A stretch of 64,000 bases of DNA, taken from Corallococcus exercitus. Lineage in GTDB: Bacteria > Myxococcota > Myxococcia > Myxococcales > Myxococcaceae. The position numbers and the translations under genes were made by a program. Each line of letters starts with the position of its first letter. Position 1 is the first letter of the stretch. Below are positions 3,575 to 53,710 of this stretch, piece by piece. Below the pieces are notes generated by a model. The model worked only from the letters and a program-made list of their open reading frames with translations. It was not told the DNA's origin and searched no databases. The DNA is taken from the NCBI RefSeq assembly GCF_042231735.1, contig NZ_CP102577.1, positions 2,783,281 to 2,847,280 of the forward strand, read 5' to 3'.

Positions 3575-3588
3575 GGAACCCCCACGCC

Positions 3589-4881: not shown

Positions 4882-4949
4882 GGTCTTCCCCCCGCCAGGA
4901 CCGACAACGTGATCCTGGCAACGTCAGACTTTACAGAACCCAATTCCTC

Positions 4950-8725: not shown

Positions 8726-8749
8726 ACCGGCGTCCCTTCCGGGCGCGGT

Positions 8750-10440: not shown

Positions 10441-10578
10441 GGTGGCCCCACCGTAGCAACCGCTCTCCCGCCGCGCCGCATCGCCGTGGGGACGGCATGG
10501 GCCCGGCCGCCCGGCTCCCCACGGAGGGGGCAGCCCCTGGCGTGAGGGGGTGCCACTGACGGTAGGCTGCGTCGCACC

Positions 10579-11076: not shown

Positions 11077-11078
11077 CT

Positions 11079-12230
11079 TCAGGCCGCGGAGGCTTCCGCC
11101 CGCGCGTCCGCGGCGGACATGGCCGGAGCCGCGGCCTTCACCAGCCGCTTCATGGACGCCTTGCCCACGACGACGTCCACCATCTTCCGCGCGCGCGTCC
11201 AGACGCTCTCCTGGACGTAGGGGATGCCGTACTTCTCGCAGAGGGCGCGCACGTGCGGCTGCGCCTCGCGGTACTTCAGCATCGGCAGGTCCGGCCAGAG
11301 GTGGTGCTCGATCTGGTAGTTCAGCCACAGGTGGGCGTAGTCGTTGAGGTCGCCGCCGGTGGCGTAGTTCGCGCTGCCCACCACCTGCTGCACCATGCGC
11401 TCCGCCTTGTTCGCGGGCGCGGAGTCGAAGCGGTACAGGTCCTCGCCGGTGTGATTGGGCCCCACCACGAAGAACGTGTGCAGGTTGGTGACGACGTCCG
11501 CCAGCACGGAGTTGCAGAAGACGCTGAACGCCGCCCACGGCCCCAGCACCAGGAACGCCGCCGGGTACAGCCCGAAGAAGACGGTGGCGTACGGCAGGTA
11601 GCAGCGCGTGAAGAGCTCCCACAGCTCCGCGCGCGTCAGCGCCCCACCCTCGCGCCGCCCCTTGCGGCGCAGCGACCCCAGCGTCTCCGGCGCGTAGTAG
11701 CTCGCGCGCCAGGTGACGGCCAGCAGCGCCAGCTGCACGTAGCGCAGGGCCAGCGGCCGGCTGTTGTCGCGCAGCGAGCCCTCCGCGTTGCGCTCCAGCA
11801 GGTCCGGATCCGCGTCCTCGCCGGTGTGCGAGTGGTGCAGCACGTTGTGCTCGAAGACCCACGCCTCCGGCAGCATCCAGTCCAGCCAGTCCACGAACCG
11901 GCGCTTCCCCTTCGCGAAGCCCTTGCTGGTGCGCGACGCGGGCATGCCCGGCACGCGGTCATAGCCCCGGTGCCCCACGTGGTGCATGAGCAGCCAGCGC
12001 GTGGAGCGGCCCAGGCCCAGCGCCACCGCGGAGAGCGGATTGGGCGCGATCCACGCCGTGGCCAGGCCCAGCGCGGACGCCACCTTCCCCCAGCGCTCCA
12101 GCTTCCGCAGGTGCGCCGCGTCCGGCTCGCCCAGGTTCGCGTCCAGCCGGGCGCGCAGCTCCTTCAGCTCCCGGTAGAAGCCCTCCACGTCCACGGAAGC
12201 CAGGTCGAAGTCGGGGGTGCCGCGGGACAT
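11079..12230 (-). CDS. membrane fatty-acid desaturase (acyl-lipid desaturase family)
   Basis: Three His boxes (HHVGH, HNVLHHSH, EHHLWPDLP) with hydrophobic spans. Start at MSRGTPDF with GAGGAG at -7. Confidence 0.8.
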   Translation of the reverse strand: MSRGTPDFDLASVDVEGFYRELKELRARLDANLGEPDAAHLRKLERWGKVASALGLATAWIAPNPLSAVALGLGRSTRWLLMHHVGHRGYDRVPGMPASRTSKGFAKGKRRFVDWLDWMLPEAWVFEHNVLHHSHTGEDADPDLLERNAEGSLRDNSRPLALRYVQLALLAVTWRASYYAPETLGSLRRKGRREGGALTRAELWELFTRCYLPYATVFFGLYPAAFLVLGPWAAFSVFCNSVLADVVTNLHTFFVVGPNHTGEDLYRFDSAPANKAERMVQQVVGSANYATGGDLNDYAHLWLNYQIEHHLWPDLPMLKYREAQPHVRALCEKYGIPYVQESVWTRARKMVDVVVGKASMKRLVKAAAPAMSAADARAEASAA

Positions 12231-39691: not shown

Positions 39692-39708
39692 CCCCGGGGG
39701 CTTTCCGC

Positions 39709-40176
39709 TCAGGACAGGTTGGCGTAGCGCAGGTAGAGGGCGCCCAGGCACACGGCGCCGTAGAGGGGAATCTCCGCCGTCTCCGTCCAGGGCTGCTGCT
39801 TCATCACCGCGCCCCAGACGTGCACCGCCGTCATGATGCCGCCAATGAGGCCGATGAGCTCGAAGATGACCAGGTGGCTCTTGGGGTCCGGGATGAACTG
39901 CACCACCGCGATGATGACGGACAGCGCCAGGCCTCCCAGGCAGCGCGCGAAGTAGACCGTCAAGTCGTTGTTGCCCGTGGGCAGCTCCCACCCGAACCAG
40001 CGCGCCCAGCGCAGCGGCACGAACAGCAACGGCAGCGCGTAGACGACCGCGAAGACCGAGGTGGAGACCGCGAGGAACCAGCTGGCCAGCGGATAGTCGG
40101 GGTTGATCATGATGGCGGACGAGGCAAGGGCACCGGGCGTCCTGCTGCCGGGCGCACCCTGCCCCACGCTGTCCAT
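39709..40176 (-). CDS. small integral membrane protein (3-4 TM helices)
   Basis: Hydrophobic helices. The start may be MINPDY at about 40110. Confidence 0.45.
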   Translation of the reverse strand: MDSVGQGAPGSRTPGALASSAIMINPDYPLASWFLAVSTSVFAVVYALPLLFVPLRWARWFGWELPTGNNDLTVYFARCLGGLALSVIIAVVQFIPDPKSHLVIFELIGLIGGIMTAVHVWGAVMKQQPWTETAEIPLYGAVCLGALYLRYANLS

Positions 40177-40243
40177 CCTAGAATCTTTTCCCTCCCCGTG
40201 GGGCGCCTTCCCCCCACCCGGCCCCCGTCAGCCCGGCTGCCGG

Positions 40244-40774
40244 CTAGCGGGTGGCGGCCAGGAGGAACTCGGCCACCCGCTCCAGGGAGGTGGTGCGCTC
40301 GGCTTCCGCCGGGAAGCGCCGGAAGGCCTCCGGGGGCCCGTGCAGGATGAGCGGCTTGCCATAGCGCAGCGCCAGGACGGCCTCCGCCGCGGTGCCCGCC
40401 CCTCCGGGTAGCGCGACCAGGGCGTGCGGCGTCAGCACGTTGATGTGGTTGCGGCTCATCGGGTCCGTGCCCTGCTCCCCGCTGAGCGGCAGGTGCGTGT
40501 AGATGGGGATTTCGATATCCGTGTTCGGGTAGCCGGGCCGGGGCTGGTACCGGCCATCCGCCCCGACAGTGCCGGGGATGATGCCGATGGCCGCCCCCCG
40601 CCGCCCCTCCACCTGGACGAAGGCCCCCGCCGCGACGCTCATGACGCCCCCGCCCGCGCCCGTCAGCAGGTCGAAGCCCGCCTCGGCAATCCACCGCGCC
40701 AGGGGGACGACCCACTCCTCGTGGGCCTCCGTGCCGGAGCCGAACACTCCGATGATGCGGCGGTGTCTGCGCAT
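40244..40774 (-). CDS. LOG-family (TIGR00725-like) Rossmann-fold protein
   Basis: GxGxxG (IGVFGSGT) and the PGGxGTxxE motif (LPGGAGTAAEAV) typical of LOG/YvdD-like proteins. Confidence 0.7.
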   Translation of the reverse strand: MRRHRRIIGVFGSGTEAHEEWVVPLARWIAEAGFDLLTGAGGGVMSVAAGAFVQVEGRRGAAIGIIPGTVGADGRYQPRPGYPNTDIEIPIYTHLPLSGEQGTDPMSRNHINVLTPHALVALPGGAGTAAEAVLALRYGKPLILHGPPEAFRRFPAEAERTTSLERVAEFLLAATR

Positions 40775-41017
40775 GACTGCGTCCTCCCCGAAAAACTGGA
40801 ACTACGTGAGCCCCTGTTCCATGCGAATCCCCGGCCAACGCCGCAAGGGCTCACGGACCGGCGTGCGGCCCGGCTCCCGTCCACCCGTGGAAGGTGCGCG
40901 GCGCGAGCGTCGCCTGGCCGTCGCTTGTCTCCTCCCGGAGCGCGAGGCCCTCCCGCACGACCCGTGATGTCGGACCCCTCCTCTACCTTCGTTCGCGAGT
41001 GAGCGAGGAGGCCGCCC

Positions 41018-41320
41018 ATGTTCGACGCCTGTGGAGGTTGTGAGCGCCGTGGCACCGCCGGAGAGGTGTTCGACTGGTGCGCGCACTGCGAGTTGTCCCT
41101 GTGTCCCGGCTGCCTCCAGCGCGGCTGCTGCGGCAGCGTGCCCGCGGACTCCGGGCGGGGCGCGCCCAGGGAGCTGCCCGAGCCGCCTCCCGAGCGCGAG
41201 CCCCTGCCGGAGGACTTCGGCGGCCGCTGCTGCACGCACGCCCGCGCGGTGGCGTGCTCCTGCGCCTTCCACTGGGTCTGCGTGCGCCACGGCGACCTGC
41301 ACGTGGGCACCCACGACTGA
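41018..41320 (+). CDS. small Cys-rich protein (putative zinc-ribbon / B-box-like)
   Basis: 100 aa with about 14 Cys in paired CxxC arrangements (CGGC, CAHC, CPGC, CC). Strong RBS (GAGGAGG) 6 nt upstream of the ATG. Convergent with the kinase gene. Confidence 0.5.
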   Translation: MFDACGGCERRGTAGEVFDWCAHCELSLCPGCLQRGCCGSVPADSGRGAPRELPEPPPEREPLPEDFGGRCCTHARAVACSCAFHWVCVRHGDLHVGTHD

Positions 41321-41414
41321 GGACGTGAAGCCTCACCCCTGTGTGGGCGTTGACACACCGGACCGGAAGGAGGCCCCGTGGTGGCGGCCCCCGGCCCGTG
41401 TCATTCCGTCCGGC

Positions 41415-44400
41415 TCAGGGCACGTCCAGCGCGACGCCCTGTCCCGGCACGGCCATCACCCAGCGGACGACGTCCGGCTTGCCGCCGCAGGTGACGCGCA
41501 CCTCGAACTCACGCCCCGCGGGCATGGGGCTGGCGAGCGGCGTCTGGCCCTGGAGCACCTGCGAGCCCAGCGCCACGCGGCAGCCCTGGGCACCGGTGAC
41601 GCTGAGCGTGCCCCGGGCATCCGCCTGGGGCGCGGCGTCCGCGAGCGTGCGCAGGTCGATGTGCTCCGACTTCGGCACCTTGCCGAAGCGGTGCAGCTTG
41701 CCCTCCACGGCCGTGGAGACGAGCCAGCCGGAGGGGTCCTCCGGCAGGGCGTTGCTGCCTTCCAGCAGCACGCCGGACACGTAGACGCGCTCGCCCTCCT
41801 GGGCGTTGCGCACCTCCACGCCGCCCTTGGGCAGCAGGAACACCAGCGCGAGCCCCGCGAGCACCAGGCCCACGCCCCCCACGACGAGCCCCTTGCGCTG
41901 GCCGGACGTCAGCCCCTTCCCCGTCGCGTCGGCGGCGGGCACCTGGGCCGCGGGGGCGGCCACGGCGTGGACGGGCGGAGGAGGCGCGGCCACGGGAGCC
42001 GCCGGAGGGCGCACGGGCGCGGCCACGGGCGGCGGCGGCGCGGCCACGGGCGGCGGCGGCGAGGGGTGGTTCCCTCCATAGGCCGCGTGCGTGCCCGTCT
42101 GCGGCGGGTGGGCACTTCCCTGCGGCGGGGCCGCGTATTGCGCGTGGGTGCCCCCGTGCTGCGGATGGGCGGCCACGGGGGGAGGCGCCACGGCGGCCAC
42201 GGGGGGAGGCGGCGGGGCCGAGGTCAGGGGCGCCACGGAGGGCACCGACACCGACGGACGCGCGGGCGCCTGCGGCGGAGGCCCCACGCGCGTGGGCACG
42301 TTGGCGGCGGCCGCCGGGCGCACCGCGGTGGGCGGCGGCAGCGGTGACGCGGGCGGCGGCGCGGCCGGGCGCGACGGACGGGGCGCGGGCGCGGCGGCCA
42401 CGGGCGGGGAGGCCACCGGGGGCGCGGCGACGGGAGGACGTGTCGGATCCGAGGTGACGGAGACGACCTCGGTGCCGCGCTCGGCGGCCTCCGGCGGGGA
42501 GGCCACCGGGGGCGGCTCCATCCGGGGCATGCTGCCGGAACCGCCGCGCACGGGCGGACGGGACAGGTCCGACGGGGCGCGCATGTCGCTGCCGGAGCCC
42601 GTGCCCGGGGCGCGCGAGTGCGAGCCCGTCCCCGGCATCAGCGCCCGGGGGTTGGAGCCCGTGCCCGAGCCGGCGATGGACGACGGCGCGTACTCGGAGA
42701 GCCGGTCGCCCAGCGCCTCCTTGAAGAACTGCGCCACCGACGCGGGCGACGAGGACAGCCGGTGGTGCGCGATGACGGCTTCAATCTCCTCGCGCATCGC
42801 CGCCGCGGAGGGCGTGCGGCGCGCCGGGTCCTTCACCAGCGCGCGCAGGATGAGGTCCGACACGTCCTGCGGGATGTGGGGCCGCAGCTGCGAGGGCACC
42901 GGCGCGGGCTCGCGCACGATGGCCGCGAGCGTGGCCGCGTCGTGGTCGCGGCGGAACGGCAGCTGGCCGGTGAGCAGCTCGAAGAGCACCACGCCCAGCG
43001 CGAACACGTCGTTGCGCCAGTCCAGCGGACGGCCGCTGGCGGCCTCCGGGGAGAGGTACGAAATCTTCCCCTTGATGACGCCCGCCTGCGTCTGCTCCTC
43101 GCCCTGCACCTTGGCGATGCCGAAGTCCGACAGCTTGATGGCGCCGTCCAGCGACACCAGCACGTTGTGGGGGCTGACGTCGCGGTGCACCACCGGGTGC
43201 GCGGTGCCGGACGGGTCCACGTAGCTGTGCGCGTAGTGCAGGCCCGCGGCGACCTCCGCCACGATGCGCAGCGCGTGCTCCAAGGGCAGCGCCATGCCCT
43301 TGCGGCGCAGCTCCGTGAGCAGGCGCTTCAGGTCCGGGCCGCGCACGTACTCCATCAGGATGTACGCCACGCCGTCCGTCACGCCCACGTCGAAGGTCTG
43401 GACGATGTTGGGGTGCGTGAGGCGCGCGTTGGCGCGGGCCTCCGCGAAGAGCATGTCGACGAACTCAGGATTCTCAGCGAACTGCGCGAGAATCTTCTTC
43501 ATCACGACGAACTTCTCGAAGCCCTTCACGCCCTGCTGCTTGGCGAGGAACACCTCCGCCATGCCGCCCTGCCCCAGCCGGCGGATGATCTGCAGCCGCG
43601 CGCTGCCGCCGTGCACGTCCGTGGGCGACGTGCCCCGGGCGCCGGGGTCCGCGTTGGTGGAGCCGAAGAGGTACTGGCTGAGCGCGCGCTGCTCCAGCGC
43701 CTCGATGTCGTCCAGCGGCTTGTCGGTGAGCGGCGTGCGCGCGAGCAGCCCCTGGAACTGCGCGAGCGCCGGAGCCCGGGCGCTGCCGCCGCAGACGGGG
43801 CACACGCGGTCCAGGGTGCCCTTGGCGCGCAGCACCTCCAGGTACTCGTTGGTCTGGATGCGCTGGTGGGTGACCTGGCCGCAGTTGCGGCAGTCGCACG
43901 GCAGCCACAGCGTGGCCAGCTTCGCCGGCAGCGCCTTGGTGGACTTCGCCAGCACGCCCAGCAGCGGCGGCGGCACGCGGCAGAGCACCACCTGGGCGCC
44001 CTGCGACGCCACCTCCAGCACCTGTTCGATGCGCGGCAGCGCCTCCGGCTCCACCGTGCTCACGTGGCAGCAGTCGAACGCGACGCGCCCCTCCAGGCCG
44101 GACGCCAGCCGGCGCACGTTGAGGTCGCCCTTGAGCGTGCTGGCCAGGGTGATGAAGGTGATGTCGTCCTGGACGATCTTCAGGTGCGAGGACAGCTCGG
44201 ACGGCTCGTTCGGGAGGCCCGCGCGCAGGTAGCGCAGCACGGCGGGGTCCACCGCGGAGAACTGCTGGCGGCGCGCGAAGTCGAAGAACTCCGTGGGCTC
44301 GTCCGCGAACTCCAGCGGCTGGGCGCACACGGGGCAGTGGTGCGGCGGGGCACCGCCCGCCTCCACGACCTTGCTCTCCTCCACCAGGCGGACCAGCCGC

Positions 44401-44753
44401 AGCCGGTCCTCCTTGCAGAAGCGGCACGAGTACGGCGCCAGCAGCGAGAGCACGCGCGCGACGCCCGCGAAGCCCTCCACCATGTTGAGCTGATCCACCA
44501 CCACCGGCGGTGCGTTGACGACGTACAGCCCCGACACGCCCTGCGGCGGGTGGCCGGCGAACTCAATCCACCGGCGGACCCCGAAGGAGCTGATGCGCTC
44601 CACCAGCCCCAGGTCCACCACCACCAGGCCCTGGAGGCCCTTGGACGCTGGCGAGAGGGGGAAGGTTTCGTCGATCACCCCGGCCACGCGCACGTGGGTC
44701 AGACTGCCCACGCGCAGGGAGGTGATGCTGGCATTGGAAGTTTGGCTCTCCAC
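41415..44753 (-). CDS. membrane Ser/Thr protein kinase with an N-terminal STAS (anti-sigma-factor antagonist-like) domain, two zinc-ribbon repeats, a Pro-rich linker, a TM helix and a C-terminal periplasmic domain
   Basis: The STAS pattern is VVVDLGLVERISSFGVRRW...LYVVNAPPVVVDQL. There are two Cx2C...Cx2C modules. Kinase motifs are a Gly loop (LGQGGMAEVF), the invariant Lys (VVMKKIL), a catalytic loop (HRDVSPHN), DFG and SPE. A TM helix (LVVGGVGLVLAGLALVFLL) separates the C-terminal domain. Confidence 0.8.
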   Translation of the reverse strand: MESQTSNASITSLRVGSLTHVRVAGVIDETFPLSPASKGLQGLVVVDLGLVERISSFGVRRWIEFAGHPPQGVSGLYVVNAPPVVVDQLNMVEGFAGVARVLSLLAPYSCRFCKEDRLRLVRLVEESKVVEAGGAPPHHCPVCAQPLEFADEPTEFFDFARRQQFSAVDPAVLRYLRAGLPNEPSELSSHLKIVQDDITFITLASTLKGDLNVRRLASGLEGRVAFDCCHVSTVEPEALPRIEQVLEVASQGAQVVLCRVPPPLLGVLAKSTKALPAKLATLWLPCDCRNCGQVTHQRIQTNEYLEVLRAKGTLDRVCPVCGGSARAPALAQFQGLLARTPLTDKPLDDIEALEQRALSQYLFGSTNADPGARGTSPTDVHGGSARLQIIRRLGQGGMAEVFLAKQQGVKGFEKFVVMKKILAQFAENPEFVDMLFAEARANARLTHPNIVQTFDVGVTDGVAYILMEYVRGPDLKRLLTELRRKGMALPLEHALRIVAEVAAGLHYAHSYVDPSGTAHPVVHRDVSPHNVLVSLDGAIKLSDFGIAKVQGEEQTQAGVIKGKISYLSPEAASGRPLDWRNDVFALGVVLFELLTGQLPFRRDHDAATLAAIVREPAPVPSQLRPHIPQDVSDLILRALVKDPARRTPSAAAMREEIEAVIAHHRLSSSPASVAQFFKEALGDRLSEYAPSSIAGSGTGSNPRALMPGTGSHSRAPGTGSGSDMRAPSDLSRPPVRGGSGSMPRMEPPPVASPPEAAERGTEVVSVTSDPTRPPVAAPPVASPPVAAAPAPRPSRPAAPPPASPLPPPTAVRPAAAANVPTRVGPPPQAPARPSVSVPSVAPLTSAPPPPPVAAVAPPPVAAHPQHGGTHAQYAAPPQGSAHPPQTGTHAAYGGNHPSPPPPVAAPPPPVAAPVRPPAAPVAAPPPPVHAVAAPAAQVPAADATGKGLTSGQRKGLVVGGVGLVLAGLALVFLLPKGGVEVRNAQEGERVYVSGVLLEGSNALPEDPSGWLVSTAVEGKLHRFGKVPKSEHIDLRTLADAAPQADARGTLSVTGAQGCRVALGSQVLQGQTPLASPMPAGREFEVRVTCGGKPDVVRWVMAVPGQGVALDVP
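41950..42215 (-). repeat. in-frame tandem nucleotide repeats encoding a Pro/Ala/Val-rich linker of the kinase
   Basis: A perfect 21-bp tandem repeat (gcggccacgggcggcggcggc, twice, at 42019-42060) and near-repeats (ggccacggggggaggcg, twice, around 42171-42211). Confidence 0.7.
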
Positions 44754-44757
44754 CCGC

Positions 44758-45603
44758 CTACCCTCGTTCCAGACAGAACAGCAGCGACTTGGGCTGCGCG
44801 GCCCGGCGGCGCGCGTCCCCCAGGTCCACCGCGCAGGCGAACTGGGTCCGCTTCCCCGGAGTCACCCGCACCGCGACCGCGTCGCTGTGCTCCAGGATGC
44901 GCCGCAGACCCAGGCCCGCGCCACCACCCGAAGCATCCACCTGCGCCTTCTCACCCCACGCCTTCACCACCCGCACCAGCGGTGACACCGACAGGCGGCC
45001 GAAGCGATCCGTCGCCTCCAGCCAGGCCCGGCCGTCCGCCACCGCCCAGGACAGCAGGCAGCGATCCTCCTCCGCCACCGACTGCACCTGTCCGCGCCGG
45101 TGGGCGTACTTCGGCTCGCCGCCCGCGTCCACCGGCGCGTCGAGCAGTGCGTTCACACCAATCTCATGGACGACATCCGCCACCCGGCTGGCCGCCGCCT
45201 TGGAGCCGCCGGCCTGGAGGACGCCTTCCGCCGCGCGCTCCCCCGCCGCCGTCACCTCCGCGACACTGCCCAGCCACGCCACCGACGTGGCGGCTTCCCG
45301 GGGAATCATGGGCTCGCCGCGCAGGAGCGCGCCGAGCAGCCGCGCCTCCCAGGCGGACGGCTGGCCGCCCTCACCGCGCGTGGCCAGGAGCAGCGCCGGG
45401 GGCTGCCGCTCCAGGAGCGCCGCGTGGGCGGGGGTGAACCGCCCGTCGAACAGCACCAGGTGCGGCGCCGCGTCGTCACCGCGCCCCAAAAGGACGCCGT
45501 CCCGGGCCAGCACCCCGGAGGCCTTCTCCAGCGCCTCCGGCGTGAGCGTCGTGTCCGGCGTCAACTTCAGGGGGGCATCCTTCACGGCGGCGACGGTATC
45601 CAC
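44758..45603 (-). CDS. two-domain protein with a C-terminal GHKL ATPase resembling RsbW/SpoIIAB (anti-sigma factor / protein serine kinase)
   Basis: N-box-like (VHEIGVNALLDA), D/G1-like (VADGRAWL), G2 (SGGGAGLGLRRIL) and a following beta strand (AVAVRVTPGKRTQFACAV), in the same order as RsbW. 4 nt from the kinase gene. Confidence 0.5.
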   Translation of the reverse strand: MDTVAAVKDAPLKLTPDTTLTPEALEKASGVLARDGVLLGRGDDAAPHLVLFDGRFTPAHAALLERQPPALLLATRGEGGQPSAWEARLLGALLRGEPMIPREAATSVAWLGSVAEVTAAGERAAEGVLQAGGSKAAASRVADVVHEIGVNALLDAPVDAGGEPKYAHRRGQVQSVAEEDRCLLSWAVADGRAWLEATDRFGRLSVSPLVRVVKAWGEKAQVDASGGGAGLGLRRILEHSDAVAVRVTPGKRTQFACAVDLGDARRRAAQPKSLLFCLERG

Positions 45604-45609
45604 AGCGCT

Positions 45610-48213
45610 CTAATAATGCAGTCGAACTTCGGTGAAGACGCCCAGCGGGGGGGCGGGGAAGCCGTGGGACTCCTCGTACTTCGCGTTGAAGAGGTTGGTG
45701 CCCAGCAGGGACACGGCCACGCGCTCGTGGACGTTGAAGCCCACGCGCGCGGTCGCGGTGATGTAGCTGGGCAGCTTCACGCGGGTGGTGGTGCCGGCGA
45801 TCTCATCCACCACGAAGCCCGGGTCGAAGCGCGGGCCCACGAACAGGCCGTACAGCTCCACGAAGGCGAACTTGCCGATGTTGGTGCGGCCGCGCAGGTA
45901 GACGCGGTGGGTGGGCGCGTAGTCCAGCGGGTAGCTGGCCCCGCCGCCCACGGGCAGCGCCTCGGCGTCCAGGAACTGGTAGGCCACGTCGAAGGACGAG
46001 TTGAGGGCCGGCACCTGCGCCGCGGCCTCCGCCTCGAAGCCCGCCACGCGCGCGTCGCCCAGGTTCTTGAACTGGGACGTGGAGCCGAAGAGGAGCTCCT
46101 GGTTGATGAAGTTGCGGGCGCGGTTGTAGAAGCCGGTGCCCGTCAGGCGCACCTTGCGGTCGAACGGCCAGAAGTCCACCGCCGCCTCCACCGTGTCCAG
46201 CGTCTCCGCGCGCAGGGCCGGGTTGCCCAGGAGCGTCGCCGCGTACATCTGCTGGTTGATGGCCAGCTCCGCCAGCGTGGGCGCGCGGAAGGCGCGGCCG
46301 TAGTTGGTGCGCAGCGTGAGCAGCTCCGGGATGGCGTGGAACACGACGCTGGCGCGCGGGGACACCTGGTCCGTCTTCGCCTCCCAGACCTTGGAGGGGA
46401 TCTGGTAGTTGTCGTAGCGGGCGCCCGCGCCCACCACCAGCCGCTCCGTGACGCGGTACTCGGCGTCCACGAAGCCGCCCAGGATGGTCTGCTTCGTGTC
46501 GTCCAGGGTCAGGCCGGGCAGCACGTTCTGGTTGTTCACCTGGTCGGCCTTCACGTCGCCGCCCACGGTGACGGACAGCTTGTCCAGGGAGAACAGCGCG
46601 CGCGCCTCACCGCCCAGGCGGCTGCGCTTGCCCAGCGTGTCCTCGAGCGCGCCGGTGATTTCGTTCTCCAGCGTCACGTTGCGGCGCTTGAAGAACGTGT
46701 AGGCCTGGGCGAACACGCGCACGTTGTCCGTCACCTGCTGATCCAGCTGCAGGGCGGCGTTCAGGTTCTGGACGTGCTCGTTGTCCTGCGCGGTGTAGTG
46801 GCAGCGGCCGCAGTTGCCCACGGTGGAGATGTTCTGGCCACCGGGCCGGCCGATGTTGCCGTCGGTGAAGTCCGCGTCCAGGGCGAGGGGCCCCACGCGG
46901 ACCTTGCCGTTCACCTGGTGCACCAGCGAGTCCTCGTTGGTGTCCGTCTGGCCCAGCTGCTGGTTGTTGAAGAGCTGCGGGCCGTCCGAGCCGAAGCCGT
47001 AGTAGCCGAGCAGCGCCTCCACCGGACCGCCGCGGCCGGCGACGTTGGTCTGCAGGCGCCACGTCTTGTCCTGGCCCGCGAGGATGCGCGCGTCGGCGCC
47101 CACGTTCTGGCCCTTGGCGATGAGGTCCGCGGGCTGGCGCTCGATGATGTTGATGACGCCGCTGAAGGCGTTGGAGCCGTAGAGCGACGAACCCGGGCCG
47201 CGGATGACCTCCACCTGCTTGAGGTTGGTCATCGGCGTCGTCTCATCCGCGTAGAACTGGCCCGTCCAGGGGTCCGTCAGCGGACGGCCGTCCTTGAGGA
47301 GCAGCAGGCGGTTGGACAGGTAGTTGGAGCCCAGGCCGCGCGCGCTCACCGCCGCCTTGCGCATGGAGCCCCGGCGGCACTCCATGCCGGGGAAGTACTG
47401 GATGGCCTCGCAGAGCGAGAACTGGCCGGTGCCCTCCAGCTCCTCCGCCGGAATCCAGGACACCGTGAGGGGCACGTCGGAGATGCGCTGGCTGCGCTTG
47501 GACGCCGTGGTGACGACGGCCTCGCTCAGCGCCAGGTTGATGTTCTTCTCCAGGTCGTCGCCGCCGCCCAGGTCCGGGCCGTCCAGGCCGGAGAGGCTGG
47601 AGGGCGGAGGCAGCGCGCGGTCCGTGGTGGGCTCCGTGAAGGGCGCGCGGTCCGGGACGTTGTCGGCCGTCCGGGGCTGCGACGACGGCAGCACCGCGCC
47701 CGTGCCCAGCGCCGGCGCGGGCGGCGGGTTGGACGGGATGTCGGTCATCAGCGGCCCGTCATAGGGCGACGTCGAGGCAGGCGTCCCGGGCGAGGCCACG
47801 GGCAGCGGATCCGCCACGGACGGGCCGACGCCAGGGCCGGCCACCGGGGCGGGCGGCGCGGGCGGCGGCTCGGTGGCGAGCACCGGCTCCTGCGGGGCGG
47901 GCGCGTCCGCGGGAATGGGCTCCGGCTCCACCGGCGGAGGCGGCGTCTTCGCGCCCCGGCGCGTCTTCGCCGTGCGCGGAGGCTTCGCCCCCGGAGTGGC
48001 GGCCTTGGCGCCCGGCGGGGTGGCCGCGCGCTTGCGGGAGGCCTTCGTCCGCGTCTTGGGAGCAGGCTCCTGGGCCTCCTGGGCCTGGGCCGTCTCCACC
48101 GCGAACAGCGACAGCGCGCAGACCACCAGCGTGAGGCATGCGCGCGCGCCCAGCCGGCCGGCAAACCCCTTCACCGCGCTGGTGCGCGGCCCACCGTACT
48201 CAGTCGAGTCCAT
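45610..48213 (-). CDS. TonB-dependent outer-membrane receptor with a long disordered N-terminal extension
   Basis: Signal peptide, then ~200 aa of Lys/Pro/Ala-rich low complexity. Plug domain (TonB-box-like ALSEAVVTTAS, RGPGSSLYGSNAFSGVINI) and a long beta-barrel. The start may be 48297. Confidence 0.8.
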   Translation of the reverse strand: MDSTEYGGPRTSAVKGFAGRLGARACLTLVVCALSLFAVETAQAQEAQEPAPKTRTKASRKRAATPPGAKAATPGAKPPRTAKTRRGAKTPPPPVEPEPIPADAPAPQEPVLATEPPPAPPAPVAGPGVGPSVADPLPVASPGTPASTSPYDGPLMTDIPSNPPPAPALGTGAVLPSSQPRTADNVPDRAPFTEPTTDRALPPPSSLSGLDGPDLGGGDDLEKNINLALSEAVVTTASKRSQRISDVPLTVSWIPAEELEGTGQFSLCEAIQYFPGMECRRGSMRKAAVSARGLGSNYLSNRLLLLKDGRPLTDPWTGQFYADETTPMTNLKQVEVIRGPGSSLYGSNAFSGVINIIERQPADLIAKGQNVGADARILAGQDKTWRLQTNVAGRGGPVEALLGYYGFGSDGPQLFNNQQLGQTDTNEDSLVHQVNGKVRVGPLALDADFTDGNIGRPGGQNISTVGNCGRCHYTAQDNEHVQNLNAALQLDQQVTDNVRVFAQAYTFFKRRNVTLENEITGALEDTLGKRSRLGGEARALFSLDKLSVTVGGDVKADQVNNQNVLPGLTLDDTKQTILGGFVDAEYRVTERLVVGAGARYDNYQIPSKVWEAKTDQVSPRASVVFHAIPELLTLRTNYGRAFRAPTLAELAINQQMYAATLLGNPALRAETLDTVEAAVDFWPFDRKVRLTGTGFYNRARNFINQELLFGSTSQFKNLGDARVAGFEAEAAAQVPALNSSFDVAYQFLDAEALPVGGGASYPLDYAPTHRVYLRGRTNIGKFAFVELYGLFVGPRFDPGFVVDEIAGTTTRVKLPSYITATARVGFNVHERVAVSLLGTNLFNAKYEESHGFPAPPLGVFTEVRLHY

Positions 48214-48447
48214 CGTTCTCAATTCCACGAGGGGAAGCAGGGATGTCCGCGGTCCGTGCGCCAGGATCCAGAGCCGGTGCGACTGGCAATCGTCCACAGG
48301 GGCGAGTTTCCGCCCCTGAACGGTGGCGTTCCGCTCGACTTCTCAAACTACCGCAATAACTCACCTAAGGCCAAGTCGTGGCTGTCGATCCAGGCAAATC
48401 ACGCGAACGGCGGCGGGAGCGCCGCGCGCGGATCAGCCACGGCGCAA

Positions 48448-49374
48448 TCAGTCATCCGGCTGTTCAGCGGACACGGCCAGGTCGTCCGCGAACGGCGGCA
48501 GCGCGGGACCCAGTGACTCGGACTGCACGAGCACGGGCGTCTCCACCCGCAGGTCGGGGGCGTCCGCGAGGACGGGCTGGCGGCGTGGGGGGCCCTGGGT
48601 GACGAGCTTGCGGAAGTCCTCGAACTCGCGGCCCTGGATGCGGGCGAAGGCGTCGAACGGGGCGACCACACCCACGGAGGACAGGGACTGGGACAACGCG
48701 TCCCCCCCGCCCTTCAGGTCCACCAGCACGGCGCCCGGCACCCGGACGCTCTTGAAGAGCACCCGCATGTCCCTGGGCACGTGCGCCACCGGCACGAGCG
48801 CGGCCTCCGCGCCCTTCGCCTCCAGCATCTTCACCGCCGACTCCACGTTGGGCACCGGCACCAGCTTGAAGTGCTTCTGGGCATCCAGGTCGCCGCCCAG
48901 CACGACGTGGGAGACGAACTTCGGATCCGCGGGGCCCGCGCCCTTCACCAGCGCCATGCGCTTGCCGGCGAGGTCCTTCACGGTGCCCTTCTGGGTGGAG
49001 ATGATGGCCCAGCGCTGCTGCGTCTCACCGGCGCGCGGCGCGTACGCCACGGGCTGCGCCTTGGCGCCCAGCTGCACCGCGGCCCAGCCGTCCACCACGG
49101 CGAAGTCGATCTGCCCCTCCCCCACCGCCTTGGAGAAGTCCTCGTAGCGGCCGAAGCTCTTGGCGCCCACGGGGCGGCCCAGGCTGGCCTCCAGCTTCTG
49201 GGCCAGGGCCTCCGCGTACTGGAAGCGCTCCTGGCCGTCCGACAGCGTGGTGGCGAGGAACACGCCCAGCGTGGCCTTCTTCGGCGCGGCGGACGCGGGA
49301 CGGGAGATGACAACGGAGAACAGCACGGCGGCGAGCAGGAGGCTCCCCCGCGCGACAAGGGATGGCGTCTTCAC
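48448..49374 (-). CDS. periplasmic PhnD/SsuA-like substrate-binding protein
   Basis: Signal peptide and type-2 periplasmic-binding fold features. It overlaps the TPR gene stop by 4 nt. Confidence 0.65.
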   Translation of the reverse strand: MKTPSLVARGSLLLAAVLFSVVISRPASAAPKKATLGVFLATTLSDGQERFQYAEALAQKLEASLGRPVGAKSFGRYEDFSKAVGEGQIDFAVVDGWAAVQLGAKAQPVAYAPRAGETQQRWAIISTQKGTVKDLAGKRMALVKGAGPADPKFVSHVVLGGDLDAQKHFKLVPVPNVESAVKMLEAKGAEAALVPVAHVPRDMRVLFKSVRVPGAVLVDLKGGGDALSQSLSSVGVVAPFDAFARIQGREFEDFRKLVTQGPPRRQPVLADAPDLRVETPVLVQSESLGPALPPFADDLAVSAEQPDD

Positions 49375-51896
49375 GGCGTCTCCTCCGCGACCCCGGTGGC
49401 CGGCGTGACGCCCTGTGCGTCACCCAGTCCATGGAGGCCCTGCAGGCGGTCCTTCCATTCACGCACCTGGGCGGCGCGGGTGCCCGCGCCGGAGGCCAGG
49501 TAGCGGCGCCAGGCCTCCACGGCCTCGGCGGGTTCATGCCGGCGCTCCTGCGCGTCGATGCCCAGGTTGAGCGAGGCGACGGGCACGGCGGTCTCCAGGC
49601 GCTTCCACGTCGCGAGCGCGGAGGCCGCTTCGCCCTGGCGCCAGTCCACGCACGCCAGGTTGTGCTGCACCAGCGCGTCGTCGGGCGTCGCGGCGAGCGC
49701 GGCCTTCAGCGCCTTCTCCGATGCCCTCATGTTGCCGGAGGCGTACGCGAGCGCCGCCTCGCGGCGCAGCAGCGCGCCGGTGAGGTGGCCCATCCACTTC
49801 GGCTGTCCGGGCATGGGCTTCTTCTGCGCGGCGGTGAGCAGCTTGCGCGCGGGCGCGACCTTGCCCTGGCGGTAGAGCACCCACGCGTCCGCGAGCGCGC
49901 GCGTGTTGGGCCACGCCCACTCCGGCGCCGGGGTGAGCGAGCGCTTGAGGCCGGCGGAGGCCTCCGCGAACCGCCCTTCTTCCGCGCGCGTGAGTGCCCG
50001 GGCGAAGGTGGCCAGCTTCGCCAGGTCCGTGCGCTTGCCGGTGCCCAGGCGGTCCACCGCGTCCAGGTCCCGGTTCGCCGCGGCCGCGTCGCCGGCCTCC
50101 AGCTTCGCCAGGGCCCGGCGCACCAGCACGCGGGGCAGGTTCGCCTCCGCCACCTTCGAGGCCGTCTTGGAGGGCCCCGCGTCCGTCAGCCGCTGCACGG
50201 CGGCGTCCACCTGGCCCAGCTCCACCTCCGCGAGCGCGGCGCCCGCGGACGCCTCCGCGCGCTGATCCGGCTCCTGCGTGGCCTCGCCGGACTGGGTGAA
50301 GGCGGCGAGCGCTCCTTGCGCGTCGCCACTGCCCAGCCGCGCGTAGCCCAGGAGCAGGTGCTCGCGCCAGGTCGCGCCCGGCAGCGTCACCGCGCCCTCC
50401 AGCACCTTGCGGGCCTCCGCGTACTGGTGGCTGTCCAGCAGCGCCGCGCCCAGGCGGCGGGCCATGGGGACGGAGCGGTCCAGGTCGTAGGCGCGGCGCA
50501 GGTCGCGCACGGCGTCGTCCAGGCGCTGCGTGCCGGCGCGGTCGCGTGCGCGGTGCGCCAGCGCCCGGGCCAGCCACTGCTTCGCGCCGGGGTGGCCGGG
50601 TTCGACCTGGAGCGCGCTGCCGTAGTCCTCGATGGCCTGGTCCCACTGGCCGGTGGCGAAGTGATCCGCGCCCAGCAGCATCCAGCCCAGCGCCTGGCGC
50701 GGGGCCATCTCCACCACGCGCCGGTGCACCTCCACCGCTCGCTGGTAGCGGCCGGCGCGGCGGTTGACGGAGCCCAGCGTCGCCCACAGCTCCAGGCTGC
50801 CGCCGCCCGTCTTCACCGCGGACTCCAGGAACTGGATGGCCTCCTCGTGGCGCGCCTGCGCCTGGAGCGCCTTGCCCACGGCGATCTGCCCCAGGAGCAG
50901 GCCCGGCTGCAGCTCCAGCACCTTGCGGAACTCCGCCTCCGCCTGCGCGGGCTGCTTCTGCGCGAGCCGCACGTCACCCAGCAAGAGGTGCGCGGCGGGC
51001 GTCGAGCCCAGCTTCATGAGCGCGGTGGCCTGGAGGTCCGCGCGCGGCACGTCGCCCGCGGCGAGGTACTGGCGCGCGAGGCGCTCCTTGGGCTCCGCCG
51101 CCTGCGGGTACTTCGTCACCAGCCGCTCCAGCAGCGCGCGGGCCTCCGGCACGCGGCCCTCCAGCTCCAGCACGGCGGAGAGGCCGATCTGCGCGGTCGC
51201 GGACTCGGCGCGGCCGGCCTGCGCCTTCTCGAAGGAGGCGCGCGCGGCGACGGCGTCGCGGCGGATGAGGTGCGCCTTGCCCAGCAGCTCGTGGATCTGG
51301 AAGTCGTTGCCCGCGAGCTTCTCCGGGCGCAGCACCAGGTAGCGCTGCAGCCGCGTCACGGCGCGGTTCCCGTCCTGGACGTAGAGGTAGTAGCTGGCCA
51401 GGTAGTAGTGGACGATGAGGTGGTCGGGCTGATCCGCGGCGGCCACCTGCTCCAGCACCGGCACGGCCTCCGGGAAGCGGCGCAGCTTGAAGTACGCCGT
51501 GCCCAGCGGGTACGCGAGCGACAGCTCCGACGGGTTCTGCGCGAACACCGGCTGGAGGCGGGCCACCGTGCGCTGGAAGTCCTGGAGCGCGTTGGCGGCG
51601 CTGCCCAGGCCCGCGGCGGCGTACACGGACTGCGGCTCCTGCGCGAGCGACTGCTCGAAGAGCTGGAGCGCCTTCTTGAACTTCTCCTCTGCCTCCTGCT
51701 TGTCGCCCTTGGAGAGGGCGGCGTTGGCGGACACAAGGGCCTGTTCGCCCTGCACCGTCATGCGCTGCGCCTCGGTGGCGGGCGGCGGGCGGAACTGGGC
51801 GAGCGCCGTCGGCGGGCCGGCCAGGGTGGCCAGCAGGACGAGCGCGGTGGAGACGCGGCGCGGGGAGCGGATGAATGGGCGCATGCGGTTCGTCAC
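49371..51896 (-). CDS. periplasmic TPR-repeat protein (841 aa)
   Basis: Signal peptide, then ~20 TPR-like helical repeats. It overlaps the upstream phosphatase gene by 4 nt. Confidence 0.75.
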   Translation of the reverse strand: MTNRMRPFIRSPRRVSTALVLLATLAGPPTALAQFRPPPATEAQRMTVQGEQALVSANAALSKGDKQEAEEKFKKALQLFEQSLAQEPQSVYAAAGLGSAANALQDFQRTVARLQPVFAQNPSELSLAYPLGTAYFKLRRFPEAVPVLEQVAAADQPDHLIVHYYLASYYLYVQDGNRAVTRLQRYLVLRPEKLAGNDFQIHELLGKAHLIRRDAVAARASFEKAQAGRAESATAQIGLSAVLELEGRVPEARALLERLVTKYPQAAEPKERLARQYLAAGDVPRADLQATALMKLGSTPAAHLLLGDVRLAQKQPAQAEAEFRKVLELQPGLLLGQIAVGKALQAQARHEEAIQFLESAVKTGGGSLELWATLGSVNRRAGRYQRAVEVHRRVVEMAPRQALGWMLLGADHFATGQWDQAIEDYGSALQVEPGHPGAKQWLARALAHRARDRAGTQRLDDAVRDLRRAYDLDRSVPMARRLGAALLDSHQYAEARKVLEGAVTLPGATWREHLLLGYARLGSGDAQGALAAFTQSGEATQEPDQRAEASAGAALAEVELGQVDAAVQRLTDAGPSKTASKVAEANLPRVLVRRALAKLEAGDAAAANRDLDAVDRLGTGKRTDLAKLATFARALTRAEEGRFAEASAGLKRSLTPAPEWAWPNTRALADAWVLYRQGKVAPARKLLTAAQKKPMPGQPKWMGHLTGALLRREAALAYASGNMRASEKALKAALAATPDDALVQHNLACVDWRQGEAASALATWKRLETAVPVASLNLGIDAQERRHEPAEAVEAWRRYLASGAGTRAAQVREWKDRLQGLHGLGDAQGVTPATGVAEETP

Positions 51897-53710
51897 GGCG
51901 TGGGGGCGGGGCTGAATTCGGCGACGATGACGGTGATGTCGTCGCGCTGGGGCTGGCCGGCGCTGTACGCGCGCACGTCCGCGAGGAGCGCGTCGCGAAG
52001 GGCGTCGGCGGGAAGGTGCGCGTGGGTCTGGAGCGCGGCGGCCAGGCGCTGCGTGCCGTAGAGGCGGTTGGCGCCGTCGCGCGCCTCGGTGAGGCCGTCC
52101 GTGTACCAGACGATGATGTCACCGGGGCTCAGCTGCGCCTGGCGCGACGTGAACTGCGAGGCGACGTTCGCGCCCAGCAGCGGGCCGCGCGCCGGCAGCG
52201 ACGCCATCTGCCGCGTGTTCCGGTTGTAGATGGCCGCCGCCGGGTGGGCGCCCGCCGCGTAGTCGATGCTGCCGCTGTACACGTCGATGACCGCGAGCGC
52301 GCTGGACATCTGGTGCTCGCCGCGGCCCACGTTGGCCAGCGTCACGTTGAGCGCGGTGATGAGCATCTGCGCGTGCACCTGCGACGGCTCGCGCAGCGTC
52401 ATCGCGGAGGCGAAGCCGCTGGTGGCGCTGGTGGCGACCAGCGACGTGGACAGGCCGTGGCCCGTCACGTCTCCAATGCCAATGACGACGCGCCGGTCGT
52501 CCAGCGCGGCGCGGAACCACCAGTCGCCGCCGCACGCGTCCGCGGGCACCACCAGCCCGGCGAGCCGCAGCGGGCCCACCGTCACGGCCTCTCGGCCCGG
52601 CAGGAGCGTCTCCTGCACGGTGCGCGCGAGCGACACCTCGCGCTCCAGCTGCGCCTTGGCGCGCACGTCCTCCAGGAGGACCTTGATGCGCTCCGCCATG
52701 TGGTTGAACACCACGCCCAGCGTCGTCACTTCACGGCCCGCGCCCGGCGCCGTGCCCGCGCGGGCGCCCAGGTCACCGGCGGCCAGCTGCATCACGCGGT
52801 GGGTGAGCACGCCCAGCGGCTTGGTGATGCGGCGGCTCTGGAAGGCGGCCAGCACGCCGGCCAGCACCACGAAGCCCACGCCCAGGCCCACGATGCGCAG
52901 CGTGTTGGCGCGCACCGCGGCGCGGTTGGTCTCCTCCAGTTCGTGCAGCTGCTTCTGCAGGTCCTCCAGCGAGTAGCTGATGACGACCACGCCCTTGCCG
53001 CCCTGCGAGCCGTAGTCGAGCGGCTCCTGGAACTCGAAGACGGGCTGGCCGTTGAAGAAGGCGCTGGCCCAGCGGCGCTCCGCGGTGCGGCCCCCGGAGG
53101 ACTCCCCCAGCTTGGCGGCCGGGTCGCTGTCCGCGACGAGCTGCCCGTCCGCGTCGAACATCTGCACGCGCAGGATGTTGCGGTTGTCCGCGATGATGGA
53201 GCGCGCGACCTCCGTGAGGAACGCGTAGTTGTTGTCGCGCAGGCTGGTGGCGGAGGTGAGCGCCAGCGTGTGGCTCACCGTCTGGCCCAGCTCGCGCGCC
53301 TGGGACTGCAGCCGCTGCGTGAACCGGTCCGACGTCGCGGTGAGCTGCGCCTCCGTCGTCTTCGCCGACAGCGCGGCCAGGAGGCCCACGATGATGATGA
53401 CCAGCGCGCCCGTGGTGAGCAGCAGCAGCTGATCCAACCGCAGCCCACGGATGGCCGCCACGTTGGGCAGCTCTCCGGCCTCCATGGGCGCGATGACCGT
53501 GCTCGTGGGCTCCGCGGCCGGCAGCCCCAGCGCCCCGGTCAGCCGGGTGGCCGTGTTCTCCCCGCGCAGGGCGGTGAGGTCCCGGGAGTGGGTGCCCGTG
53601 TACTCCGGCGGAGGGGGCGGGGTGCCAGGCCCTGCGTCGTGGGAATCTCCGGACGCATCGGGGGAATCTGGCACGGGGTCGAGGCGCGTGTTCGTACGGG
53701 ACAAAGGCAA
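51893..53710 (-). CDS. membrane sensor PP2C/SpoIIE-family protein Ser/Thr phosphatase (RsbU-like) with a periplasmic domain and HAMP
   Basis: Two TM helices flank a ~200-aa periplasmic domain, followed by a HAMP-like linker. The PP2C motifs are present (GGDWW, GDVTGHG, VWYTDGLTEA, DDITV). Confidence 0.8.
   Translation of the reverse strand: MPLSRTNTRLDPVPDSPDASGDSHDAGPGTPPPPPEYTGTHSRDLTALRGENTATRLTGALGLPAAEPTSTVIAPMEAGELPNVAAIRGLRLDQLLLLTTGALVIIIVGLLAALSAKTTEAQLTATSDRFTQRLQSQARELGQTVSHTLALTSATSLRDNNYAFLTEVARSIIADNRNILRVQMFDADGQLVADSDPAAKLGESSGGRTAERRWASAFFNGQPVFEFQEPLDYGSQGGKGVVVISYSLEDLQKQLHELEETNRAAVRANTLRIVGLGVGFVVLAGVLAAFQSRRITKPLGVLTHRVMQLAAGDLGARAGTAPGAGREVTTLGVVFNHMAERIKVLLEDVRAKAQLEREVSLARTVQETLLPGREAVTVGPLRLAGLVVPADACGGDWWFRAALDDRRVVIGIGDVTGHGLSTSLVATSATSGFASAMTLREPSQVHAQMLITALNVTLANVGRGEHQMSSALAVIDVYSGSIDYAAGAHPAAAIYNRNTRQMASLPARGPLLGANVASQFTSRQAQLSPGDIIVWYTDGLTEARDGANRLYGTQRLAAALQTHAHLPADALRDALLADVRAYSAGQPQRDDITVIVAEFSPAPTP

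Follow-up and report, generated by a model that had tools for sequence, protein, structure and literature searches.

A receptor Ser/Thr kinase with a tandem STAS-zinc-ribbon module, clustered with an RsbW-like gene and a SpoIIE-type phosphatase in Corallococcus exercitus: a candidate sigma-independent partner switch

Introduction

Myxobacteria encode about 100 Hanks-type Ser/Thr kinases per genome, and to our knowledge very few of these have known inputs. Partner switching is usually described as sigma-factor control. Why, then, should a Hanks-type receptor kinase carry STAS domains of the anti-sigma antagonist type at its N-terminus, and with which partner would they communicate? The question is raised by one gene in a 64,000-nucleotide stretch of Corallococcus exercitus DNA (assembly GCF_042231735.1, contig NZ_CP102577.1, positions 2,783,281 to 2,847,280 of the forward strand), which we call the window; positions below are those of the window, and its features are collected in Table 1. 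The initial annotation of the gene, made from the letters of the DNA, had recorded a STAS-like N-terminus, a duplicated zinc-ribbon unit and an unusual catalytic loop. A second STAS domain, an adjacent SpoIIAB/RsbW-like gene and a clustered SpoIIE phosphatase were absent from it, and these give the architecture its likely meaning. With moderate confidence, we read the locus as a sigma-independent partner switch whose STAS antagonist is built into a Hanks receptor kinase, the output of the circuit.

A tandem STAS-ribbon module precedes the kinase domain

The gene begins with GTG and has 1112 codons; its third-position G+C (GC3) of 0.96 in a genome of 72% G+C marks it as a real gene, and its product is identical to WP_375759950.1, deposited as 'serine/threonine-protein kinase [Corallococcus exercitus]'. 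Two STAS domains, each followed by a C4 zinc ribbon, are succeeded by the Hanks kinase domain, a Pro/Ala linker, a single transmembrane (TM) helix and a PEGA-like ectodomain. The protein is thus a bitopic receptor Ser/Thr kinase with a cytoplasmic N-terminal tandem STAS-ribbon module. The order of kinase, linker, TM helix and ectodomain agrees with that proposed in the initial annotation, all of whose motifs and segments were found in the 1112-aa protein.

The first ~100 residues had been described as STAS-like, and the STAS fold of the N-terminal unit was borne out, although Pfam STAS_2 stays below threshold for this kinase (14.8 bits against a cutoff of 29.2; E 0.032). The same model reaches 24.7-27.9 bits in orthologues and, in the orthologue P0010, matches aa 215-268 with E 2.7e-6. 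A profile of the STAS1 family searched against the PDB finds anti-sigma antagonists by sequence (E 2.9e-4), and its alignment sets 'veritSfGvreW' over 'vsymdSaGlgtl' of TM1442, with a Haliangium antagonist also aligned. Ser56 therefore falls on the canonical phospho-acceptor position, as had been suggested for the Ser of the ISSFG segment. This Ser is kept in 92 of 93 relatives (23-70% identical), and the equivalent residue of STAS2 is mostly Pro; judged from these residues, only STAS1 looks phosphorylatable, and STAS2, having lost the acceptor, is probably a scaffold.

Each STAS domain runs into paired CxxC motifs spaced 26 residues apart, and not the ~28 first estimated. Among the same relatives three of the eight Cys (C110, C113 and C140) never vary, and each of the remaining five is conserved in 90% or more. 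The two halves of the module align with each other (BLASTP E 8e-6), both CxxC pairs being in register, so the internal duplication stands; the repeated unit, however, is ~178 aa rather than ~100 aa, since it includes the second STAS domain. In the predicted structure the secondary structure is repeated across the halves, and the conserved CxxC knuckles sit on beta-hairpins (residues 103-122 and 281-300), as in C4 zinc ribbons; ribbon 1 also draws weak zf-Di19 and rubredoxin-like matches in Pfam. We regard the ribbons as structural additions particular to this STAS family.

Zinc ribbons often bind nucleic acids or proteins, and this suggests another role for the module. It might not be phosphorylated at all, and instead bind a small molecule (a nucleotide, anion or acyl carrier, as the SLC26/YchM STAS domains do) or, through its ribbons, nucleic acid, while the kinase would be a low-activity enzyme or a pseudokinase scaffold. 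The near-invariance of the Ser at the phospho-site of STAS1 and its loss from STAS2 argue against such a ligand-binding role, to which we return with the catalytic loop.

An RsbW-like gene and a SpoIIE phosphatase share the cluster

The gene immediately upstream of the kinase encodes a 281-aa protein annotated as 'hypothetical protein'. It consists of an N-terminal alpha/beta domain (~130 aa) and a C-terminal GHKL domain of SpoIIAB/RsbW type. The predicted model of this protein best matches SpoIIAB and RsbW, not a stressosome kinase, and shows a Bergerat fold most like that of the anti-sigma kinases. Its N-box residues E147 and N151 and the stretch G226-GGAGLG-232 are invariant, and its G1 box is D199-R-F-G202, a D-x-x-G in place of D-x-G-x-G.

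These two genes end a string of six on the minus strand, at the head of which is a membrane HAMP-SpoIIE phosphatase. From phosphatase to kinase, the gaps between consecutive genes are -4, -4, 150, 6 and 4 nt. SiaA is the best NCBIfam match of the phosphatase (E 7e-25, under the family cutoff). A SpoIIE-type phosphatase, a GHKL protein and a STAS protein, the components of a partner switch, are hence encoded together. A domain scan of the genes from 35390 to 53710 turned up no sigma factor, and searches for promoters and terminators at either end of the cluster gave nothing informative.

Orthologues of the kinase are present in 50+ myxobacterial loci, the nearest genomes in the species-level collection being Corallococcus spp. 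(93-98% identity). The order TPR protein, PhnD-like protein, TonB receptor, GHKL protein and kinase does not change in any orthologous locus with flanks long enough to show it, spanning Corallococcus, Myxococcus, Pyxidicoccus, Citreicoccus, Archangium, Vitiosangium, Hyalangium and several metagenome-assembled genomes (MAGs). Even in two rearranged MAG loci (L054 and L055) the HAMP-SpoIIE gene lies beside the cluster. Myxococcus xanthus has the identical full string, HAMP-SpoIIE included, and there the start of the kinase gene overlaps the stop of the 280-aa gene MXAN_4558; the kinase orthologue of strain DK1622 is ABF90050.1. As MXAN_4559 is the TonB receptor (PMC3222651) and the 280-aa gene is MXAN_4558, the kinase corresponds to MXAN_4557 and the phosphatase to MXAN_4562. 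The latter is the sole SpoIIE-like phosphatase of M. xanthus, a species whose far smaller number of STAS proteins than Sorangium was stressed in the same study (PMC2887360). We found no paper on MXAN_4557 or MXAN_4558.

The module and its GHKL neighbour recur far beyond this locus

To gauge the spread of the module, residues 1-383 were compared by phmmer with 1.84 billion representative proteins (50%-identity library). It returned 2241 clusters at E<=1e-3, of which 857 remain at E<=1e-10; this is indicative that the architecture, correctly described in its domain order, is not rare as had been supposed. Nor is the combination new in kind, as was also supposed: fusions of STAS (COG1366) with eukaryotic-like kinases were remarked for Sorangium cellulosum by Treuner-Lange (2010; PMC2887360). 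The module is joined to kinases (before or behind them), to FIST domains, to AAA16-TPR-cyclase proteins and to TM-PDZ proteins. In this last type, which makes up ~50 of the ~150 best representatives, the module is the sole cytoplasmic part and is followed by a TM segment, a periplasmic domain and a PDZ domain. A degenerate kinase hidden in the TM-PDZ relatives was considered and dismissed, the kinase hidden Markov model (HMM) finding nothing significant in most of them and a TM segment plus periplasmic domain following the module directly.

We then sampled the gene neighbourhoods of distant module proteins (~27-33% identity with the query), eight contexts in all. In six, a homologue of the 281-aa GHKL protein directly adjoins the module gene (Table 1); the homology is clear by hhalign (probability 99.1%, E 1.4e-18) and hmmsearch (E 1e-21 to 1e-29), and the adjacency is seen with module-kinases and TM-PDZ proteins alike. 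SpoIIE proteins occur no more than two genes away in two of these contexts (L067 and L068). Fusions point in the same direction. A metagenomic relative at L068 is a single 1029-aa polypeptide in which two STAS-ribbon units and a Hanks kinase with the HRDVSPHN loop are followed by a C-terminal RsbW-like GHKL domain, and a 484-aa protein of that locus combines a GHKL-like domain with half a module. Near the tandem-module/GHKL pairs there are also single-unit STAS-ribbon proteins, some of them free-standing (~150-180 aa) and others the N-terminal part of a longer polypeptide; in these [ST]-S-x-G is kept. We found no description of the GHKL/STAS-ribbon operon context or of the family-wide pairing in the searchable literature.

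The same comparisons bear on a simpler, self-contained arrangement, in which the STAS module would be autoregulatory or dock substrates, Ser56 would be phosphorylated in cis or trans by the fused Hanks domain, and the GHKL protein would be a mere downstream binder or unrelated. Module and Hanks domain are indeed fused repeatedly, with either one in front; for the STAS domains of Sorangium an 'ELK-linked function' was suggested (PMC2887360); and the Hanks kinase PknD phosphorylates the STAS protein Rv0516c (PMC1847690). The kinase-less TM-PDZ proteins nevertheless keep Ser56, and all three of those with sampled contexts (P0031, P0043 and P0060) adjoin a GHKL gene. What accompanies the module constantly is therefore the GHKL protein and not the Hanks domain. 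PknD, moreover, phosphorylates Rv0516c on Thr2 and not on the canonical Ser. On balance, we consider the self-contained arrangement unlikely.

A stressosome-like wiring has also to be weighed. Here the membrane-anchored tandem STAS would hold the GHKL protein inactive, as RsbR/RsbS hold RsbT, with the Hanks domain as input; upon a signal the GHKL protein would phosphorylate the STAS module, be freed, and switch on a target, the HAMP-SpoIIE phosphatase or some other. The presence of two STAS units in one polypeptide, together with the single-unit proteins of related clusters, recalls RsbR plus RsbS, and a module that is the only cytoplasmic domain of the TM-PDZ relatives would suit a signal-releasing scaffold. 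Yet the best matches of the GHKL model are SpoIIAB and RsbW and not a stressosome kinase, the 64-kb window holds no single-unit STAS-ribbon gene, and there is no indication of an oligomeric cage. As most components are common to this wiring and to the partner switch that we favour, only the wiring differs; we hold the stressosome-like version to be rather improbable.

A few observations on individual relatives are added here. The distant protein P0102 joins module, kinase, AAA16, TPR and cyclase. P0007 is a single 444-aa call in which a GHKL-like gene reads straight into a STAS N-terminus, through a frameshift or read-through or as a natural fusion. P0005 (module, STAS and cNMP-binding domains) was set aside as a new architecture: on its 2.7-kb contig the sequence changes abruptly into a SulP-like C-terminus, and it is probably a chimeric assembly. 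Within the 64-kb window no second copy of the module or of the GHKL domain was found, for example at the N-terminus of the cyclase-AAA16-TPR protein.

The HRDVSPHN loop is a signature of a kinase clade

Pfam Pkinase (PF00069) matches aa 388-653 with E 4e-42 (144.8 bits against a cutoff of 31.7), and the closest solved kinase domains are those of StkP and PknB (E 2e-45 to 1e-40). The motifs listed in the initial annotation were all located: the Gly loop GQGGMAEV (394-401), the beta3 Lys K419 (VVMK), DFG (543-545), SPE (568-570) and the Lys-to-Ser change of HRDVSPHN. To these are added the alphaC Glu E438 (FAEARA) and D525 and N530 of the catalytic loop. S527 aligns with the Lys of HRDLKPQN in StkP, so the loop Lys is missing and every other catalytic motif is intact. 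Compared with StkP and PknB there is also an insertion of eight residues directly before HRD (the YVDPSGTAHP region, aa ~512-522), which is kept in the orthologues P0002 and P0003.

The loop had been presented as a telling feature of this protein. Comparison with other kinases does not support this, and comes close to what that annotation itself had named as making the variant uninformative, namely its universality in the kinases of the species. Among the 120 closest kinase-domain homologues a catalytic loop was located in 118, and every one of these loops reads HRD[VI][ST]PxN; the remaining two gave no match. These homologues are mostly 42-50% identical, come from Myxococcia, Polyangia, Nannocystaceae and Kofleriaceae and mostly carry the kinase N-terminally; none has the paired CxxC of the module. 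Unrelated kinases near the distant relatives have loops such as HRDVSLGN and HRDVNPSN, and only 2 of ~70 module-fused kinases have HRDLKPEN. HRDVSPHN is thus the normal loop of a large Myxococcota kinase clade, a clade signature, and by itself no mark of a pseudokinase; we discard it as a distinctive feature. Rio and Bud32 kinases have Ser or Thr at the position of the loop Lys and are active. Given that Ser or Thr is conserved here across the clade and that the other residues are intact, a functional variant is indicated, not decay. Our literature search on HRDVSP, HRDISP and HRDVTP motifs returned nothing relevant.

This observation returns us to the ligand-binding module. The replaced Lys, which contacts the gamma-phosphate, is a point in favour of a weak or inactive kinase, but its replacement throughout the clade with an otherwise intact catalytic core is not. 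As the dedicated GHKL neighbour and SpoIIE phosphatases also recur, we consider a non-phosphorylated module very unlikely.

A model for the proposed partner switch

In the circuit that we favour, the tandem STAS-ribbon module would be the STAS ('antagonist') component, with the GHKL protein supplied by the translationally coupled upstream gene and the HAMP-SpoIIE phosphatase by the head of the cluster. Unphosphorylated STAS1 would bind the GHKL protein, which would phosphorylate Ser56 and then dissociate. Upon an envelope signal, with which the TonB receptor and the PhnD-like binding protein of the cluster may be connected, the phosphatase would remove the phosphate from Ser56. The bound or free state of the module would be relayed to the fused Hanks domain, which would also take input from the PEGA-like ectodomain, and the output of the switch would be Ser/Thr phosphorylation of downstream targets instead of release of a sigma factor. 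There are precedents for the elements of such a circuit. The SiaABCD system of Pseudomonas aeruginosa is a partner switch with an enzyme as output, and the recently described All4160/HenR switch of Anabaena is another; in Mycobacterium tuberculosis a Hanks kinase, PknD, phosphorylates a STAS protein (PMC1847690).

The proposal builds on folds, motif conservation, adjacency, synteny, the recurrence of the pairing and the fusion proteins. From these we infer each phosphorylation and binding step, the direction in which the Hanks domain is controlled, and the roles of the TonB receptor, PhnD-like and TPR proteins. Several points weigh against it. Every biochemical step is drawn from sequence, models and gene context, and the relay from the state of the STAS module to the Hanks domain is hypothetical. 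The GHKL assignment is one of predicted structure plus motifs: Pfam (E<=10), NCBIfam and a PDB sequence profile all give no GHKL match for the 281-aa protein, and only one of its 44 homologues matches the HATPase profile (E 0.075). Its atypical G1 spacing could impair ATP binding or kinase activity. Between the phosphatase gene and the GHKL/kinase pair lie three genes (TPR protein, PhnD-like protein, TonB receptor) whose part in the circuit is hypothetical. In the distant sample, L063 (a 5.5-kb contig) and the FIST-rich locus L064/L065 are the two contexts of eight that have no GHKL gene, and paralogous module-kinases of Archangium and Cystobacter lack one within ~6 kb (L036, L038, L043, L045, L050, L052 and L057). 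The paralogues are indicative that the pairing is frequent but not obligatory in cis.

Linker, ectodomain and neighbouring genes

The juxtamembrane linker is the variable part of the protein. Relatives more than 90% identical are 1097-1113 aa long in Corallococcus and 1048-1056 aa in M. xanthus; if two proteins with a shorter N-terminal call are set aside, all insertions and deletions among those of Corallococcus fall within aa 777-932. Across syntenic orthologues the linker measures 190-338 aa. Its length in the window protein (285 aa) is close to the ~300 aa estimated initially; the exact 21-bp repeat reported there is real, with only 2.2 copies. Many short-read assemblies of orthologues break ~1.3-2.4 kb past the gene start (L001-L011, L018 and L024), inside or just before the GC-rich linker (up to 84% G+C), and database proteins are consequently often 'partial' kinases in which the full architecture is under-represented.

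The one TM helix of the initial annotation was recovered as a hydrophobic segment (aa ~956-975) with the maximum mean hydropathy, 2.76, and is kept in all full-length orthologues. The extracytoplasmic domain beyond it is also present, at ~137 aa where ~160 aa had been given. Orthologue alignment of this ectodomain gives 55% mean column identity and two invariant Cys. Weak Pfam PEGA (PF08308) matches were obtained in 10 of 34 orthologues (best E 1.7e-5), and none for the window protein.

Convergent with the kinase gene is a Cys-rich ORF of 100 aa with several CxxC and CC motifs and GC3 of 0.96-0.98. The frame is conserved, with most of its Cys, in C. coralloides (95%) and in Hyalangium-like genomes (57-60%); neither Pfam nor NCBIfam matches it. 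This conserved Cys-rich frame was preferred to the mechanical ORF at 40663-41358 on the minus strand, which has an equal GC3 phase and which it probably replaces. Further 3' of the kinase lie a SLOG/LDcluster4 gene and a gene for a cyclase-AAA16-TPR protein; C. coralloides and Hyalangium-like genomes have this block in synteny, and in M. xanthus lanthipeptide-dehydratase-like genes follow the kinase instead. In the mechanical ORF of the TonB receptor the Plug domain begins only at aa 272, leaving an unannotated N-terminal extension of ~230-270 aa. The M. xanthus receptor MXAN_4559, with a called length of 859 aa, has been reported from proteomes of the outer membrane and of outer membrane vesicles.

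Table 1. Features of the window and of the distant module contexts, with positions in the sequence named in the first column.
Sequence	Feature	Positions	Strand	Remarks
Window	Cyclase-AAA16-TPR gene	35390-39991	-	Adenylate/guanylate cyclase; 1533 aa; first ~370 aa unannotated
Window	SLOG/LDcluster4 gene	40244-40774	-	TIGR00725-like
Window	Cys-rich ORF	41018-41320	+
Window	Receptor-type Hanks Ser/Thr kinase gene	41415..44753	-	1112 aa; GC3 0.96; exact protein match
Window	Extracytoplasmic domain	41418..41825	-	~137 aa; two invariant Cys; PEGA-like
Window	Single TM helix	41826..41888	-	aa ~956-976; basic residues on N-terminal (cytoplasmic) side
Window	Pro/Ala-rich juxtamembrane linker	41889..42743	-	aa 671-955; 72 Pro + 57 Ala of 285 residues
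Window	Exact 21-bp repeat	42016-42061	-	2.2 copies; PPPPVAA encoded twice
Window	Hanks-type kinase domain	42744..43592	-	aa 388-670; Pfam Pkinase
Window	Catalytic loop HRDVSPHN	43164-43187	-	aa 523-530
Window	Insertion before HRD	43188-43220	-	aa ~512-522
Window	Zinc ribbon 2	43770..43898	-	C288-x2-C291 ... C318-x2-C321
Window	STAS domain 2	43890..44183	-	aa ~191-288; without phospho-acceptor
Window	Zinc ribbon 1	44304..44432	-	C110-x2-C113 ... C140-x2-C143; appended to last STAS1 strand
Window	STAS domain 1	44424..44732	-	aa ~8-110; candidate phospho-acceptor Ser56 in ISSFG
Window	ISSFG motif with Ser56	44580-44594	-	aa 54-58
Window	SpoIIAB/RsbW-type GHKL gene	44758..45603	-	281 aa; MXAN_4558 orthologue; stop 4 nt before kinase start
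Window	TonB-dependent receptor	45610..48297	-	Pfam Plug + TonB_dep_Rec_b-barrel; MXAN_4559 orthologue
Window	PhnD-like periplasmic solute-binding protein	48448..49374	-	Pfam Phosphonate-bd E 2.7e-11; syntenic
Window	TPR protein	49371..51896	-	841 aa; coding region overlaps both neighbours by 4 nt; syntenic
Window	Membrane HAMP-SpoIIE (PP2C-type) phosphatase	51893..53710	-	Head of cluster; Pfam SpoIIE E 1.1e-38, HAMP E 4e-9; MXAN_4562 orthologue
L062	GHKL homologue			Upstream of module gene
L062	Single-unit STAS-ribbon protein	10115-11470
L066	GHKL homologue			Downstream, overlapping
L066	Single-unit STAS-ribbon protein	7132-7584
L067	GHKL homologue			Upstream; SpoIIE protein two genes downstream
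L067	Single-unit STAS-ribbon protein	3340-4923
L068	GHKL homologue			Upstream; HAMP-HisKA-HATPase-REC-SpoIIE protein directly upstream of GHKL gene
L068	Single-unit STAS-ribbon protein	539-1012
L068	GHKL-like domain + half a module	4512-5966	+	484 aa
L068	Tandem STAS-ribbon, Hanks kinase, GHKL	8267-11356	-	1029 aa
L069	GHKL homologue			Upstream
L070	GHKL homologue			Downstream
L070	Single-unit STAS-ribbon protein	2061-2597

Comparison with known systems and significance

The SpoIIE-SpoIIAA-SpoIIAB and RsbU-RsbV-RsbW switches of Bacillus share with this cluster a PP2C phosphatase, a STAS protein with Ser at the acceptor position, a small protein of the GHKL Ser-kinase fold and the clustering of the genes. 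In contrast to them, no sigma factor is seen here within ~10 kb; the STAS domain is duplicated, each copy ends in a C4 ribbon, and a Hanks receptor kinase continues the same polypeptide; the GHKL protein carries ~130 additional aa as an N-terminal domain and is missed by the Pfam HATPase models; and the phosphatase is set apart from the kinase pair by three unrelated envelope genes. Strictly defined, the classical family hence excludes the system on two grounds: no sigma factor was found nearby, and the STAS and GHKL domains lie under the Pfam thresholds. The system nevertheless appears to work like that family.

SiaABCD, which comprises the HAMP-PP2C protein SiaA, the GHKL-like SiaB, the STAS-like SiaC and the diguanylate cyclase SiaD, is close in its phosphatase, that of the present cluster most resembling SiaA with a score under the SiaA family cutoff. 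The Sia output, however, is a separate cyclase, whereas here a Hanks kinase is covalently fused to the STAS domains, and SiaC is a DUF1987-type STAS protein without ribbons. Rv1364c of M. tuberculosis unites PAS, RsbU, RsbW and RsbV in one polypeptide, which lacks a Hanks kinase. In the PknD/Rv0516c pair, kinase and STAS are carried by separate proteins, and phosphorylation takes place at a residue other than the canonical Ser. The receptors PknB and StkP share the cytoplasmic kinase, juxtamembrane linker, single TM helix and extracellular sensor domain; they differ from the present kinase in having PASTA domains where the ectodomain here is PEGA-like, and they lack its Ser in place of the loop Lys, its eight extra residues before HRD and its N-terminal STAS-ribbon module of ~385 aa. 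The Sorangium fusions are the same kind of domain combination, but they are the subject of a one-sentence genomic remark with no tandem STAS-ribbon module, GHKL partner or link to MXAN_4557-4562 (PMC2887360).

The main interest of the locus accordingly lies in its operon context and in the family-wide pairing of GHKL and STAS-ribbon proteins, and not in rarity or in the catalytic loop. Two families are missed by current annotation, namely the STAS plus zinc-ribbon module, which is invisible or sub-threshold in domain databases, and its RsbW-like partner. We suggest tentatively, with a confidence that falls a little short of even, that Myxococcota hold a large unrecognised class of sigma-independent partner switches, in which STAS-ribbon units (single, tandem or fused) would form the cytoplasmic ends of Hanks-kinase or TM-PDZ receptors and pair with RsbW-like GHKL proteins that Pfam does not see. 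On this same tentative footing, MXAN_4562 may be dedicated to MXAN_4557/4558 and so wire GHKL/PP2C switching into Hanks signalling downstream of a TonB-receptor-linked envelope signal. If this is true, a candidate substrate would be at hand for the single SpoIIE-like phosphatase of M. xanthus, a species in which the scarcity of STAS proteins was raised as a question by the 2010 phosphatome paper (PMC2887360). The hypothesis is directly testable in the genetically tractable M. xanthus through MXAN_4557, MXAN_4558 and MXAN_4562. In essence, the locus would then join GHKL/PP2C partner switching to eukaryotic-like Ser/Thr kinase signalling in one conserved operon.

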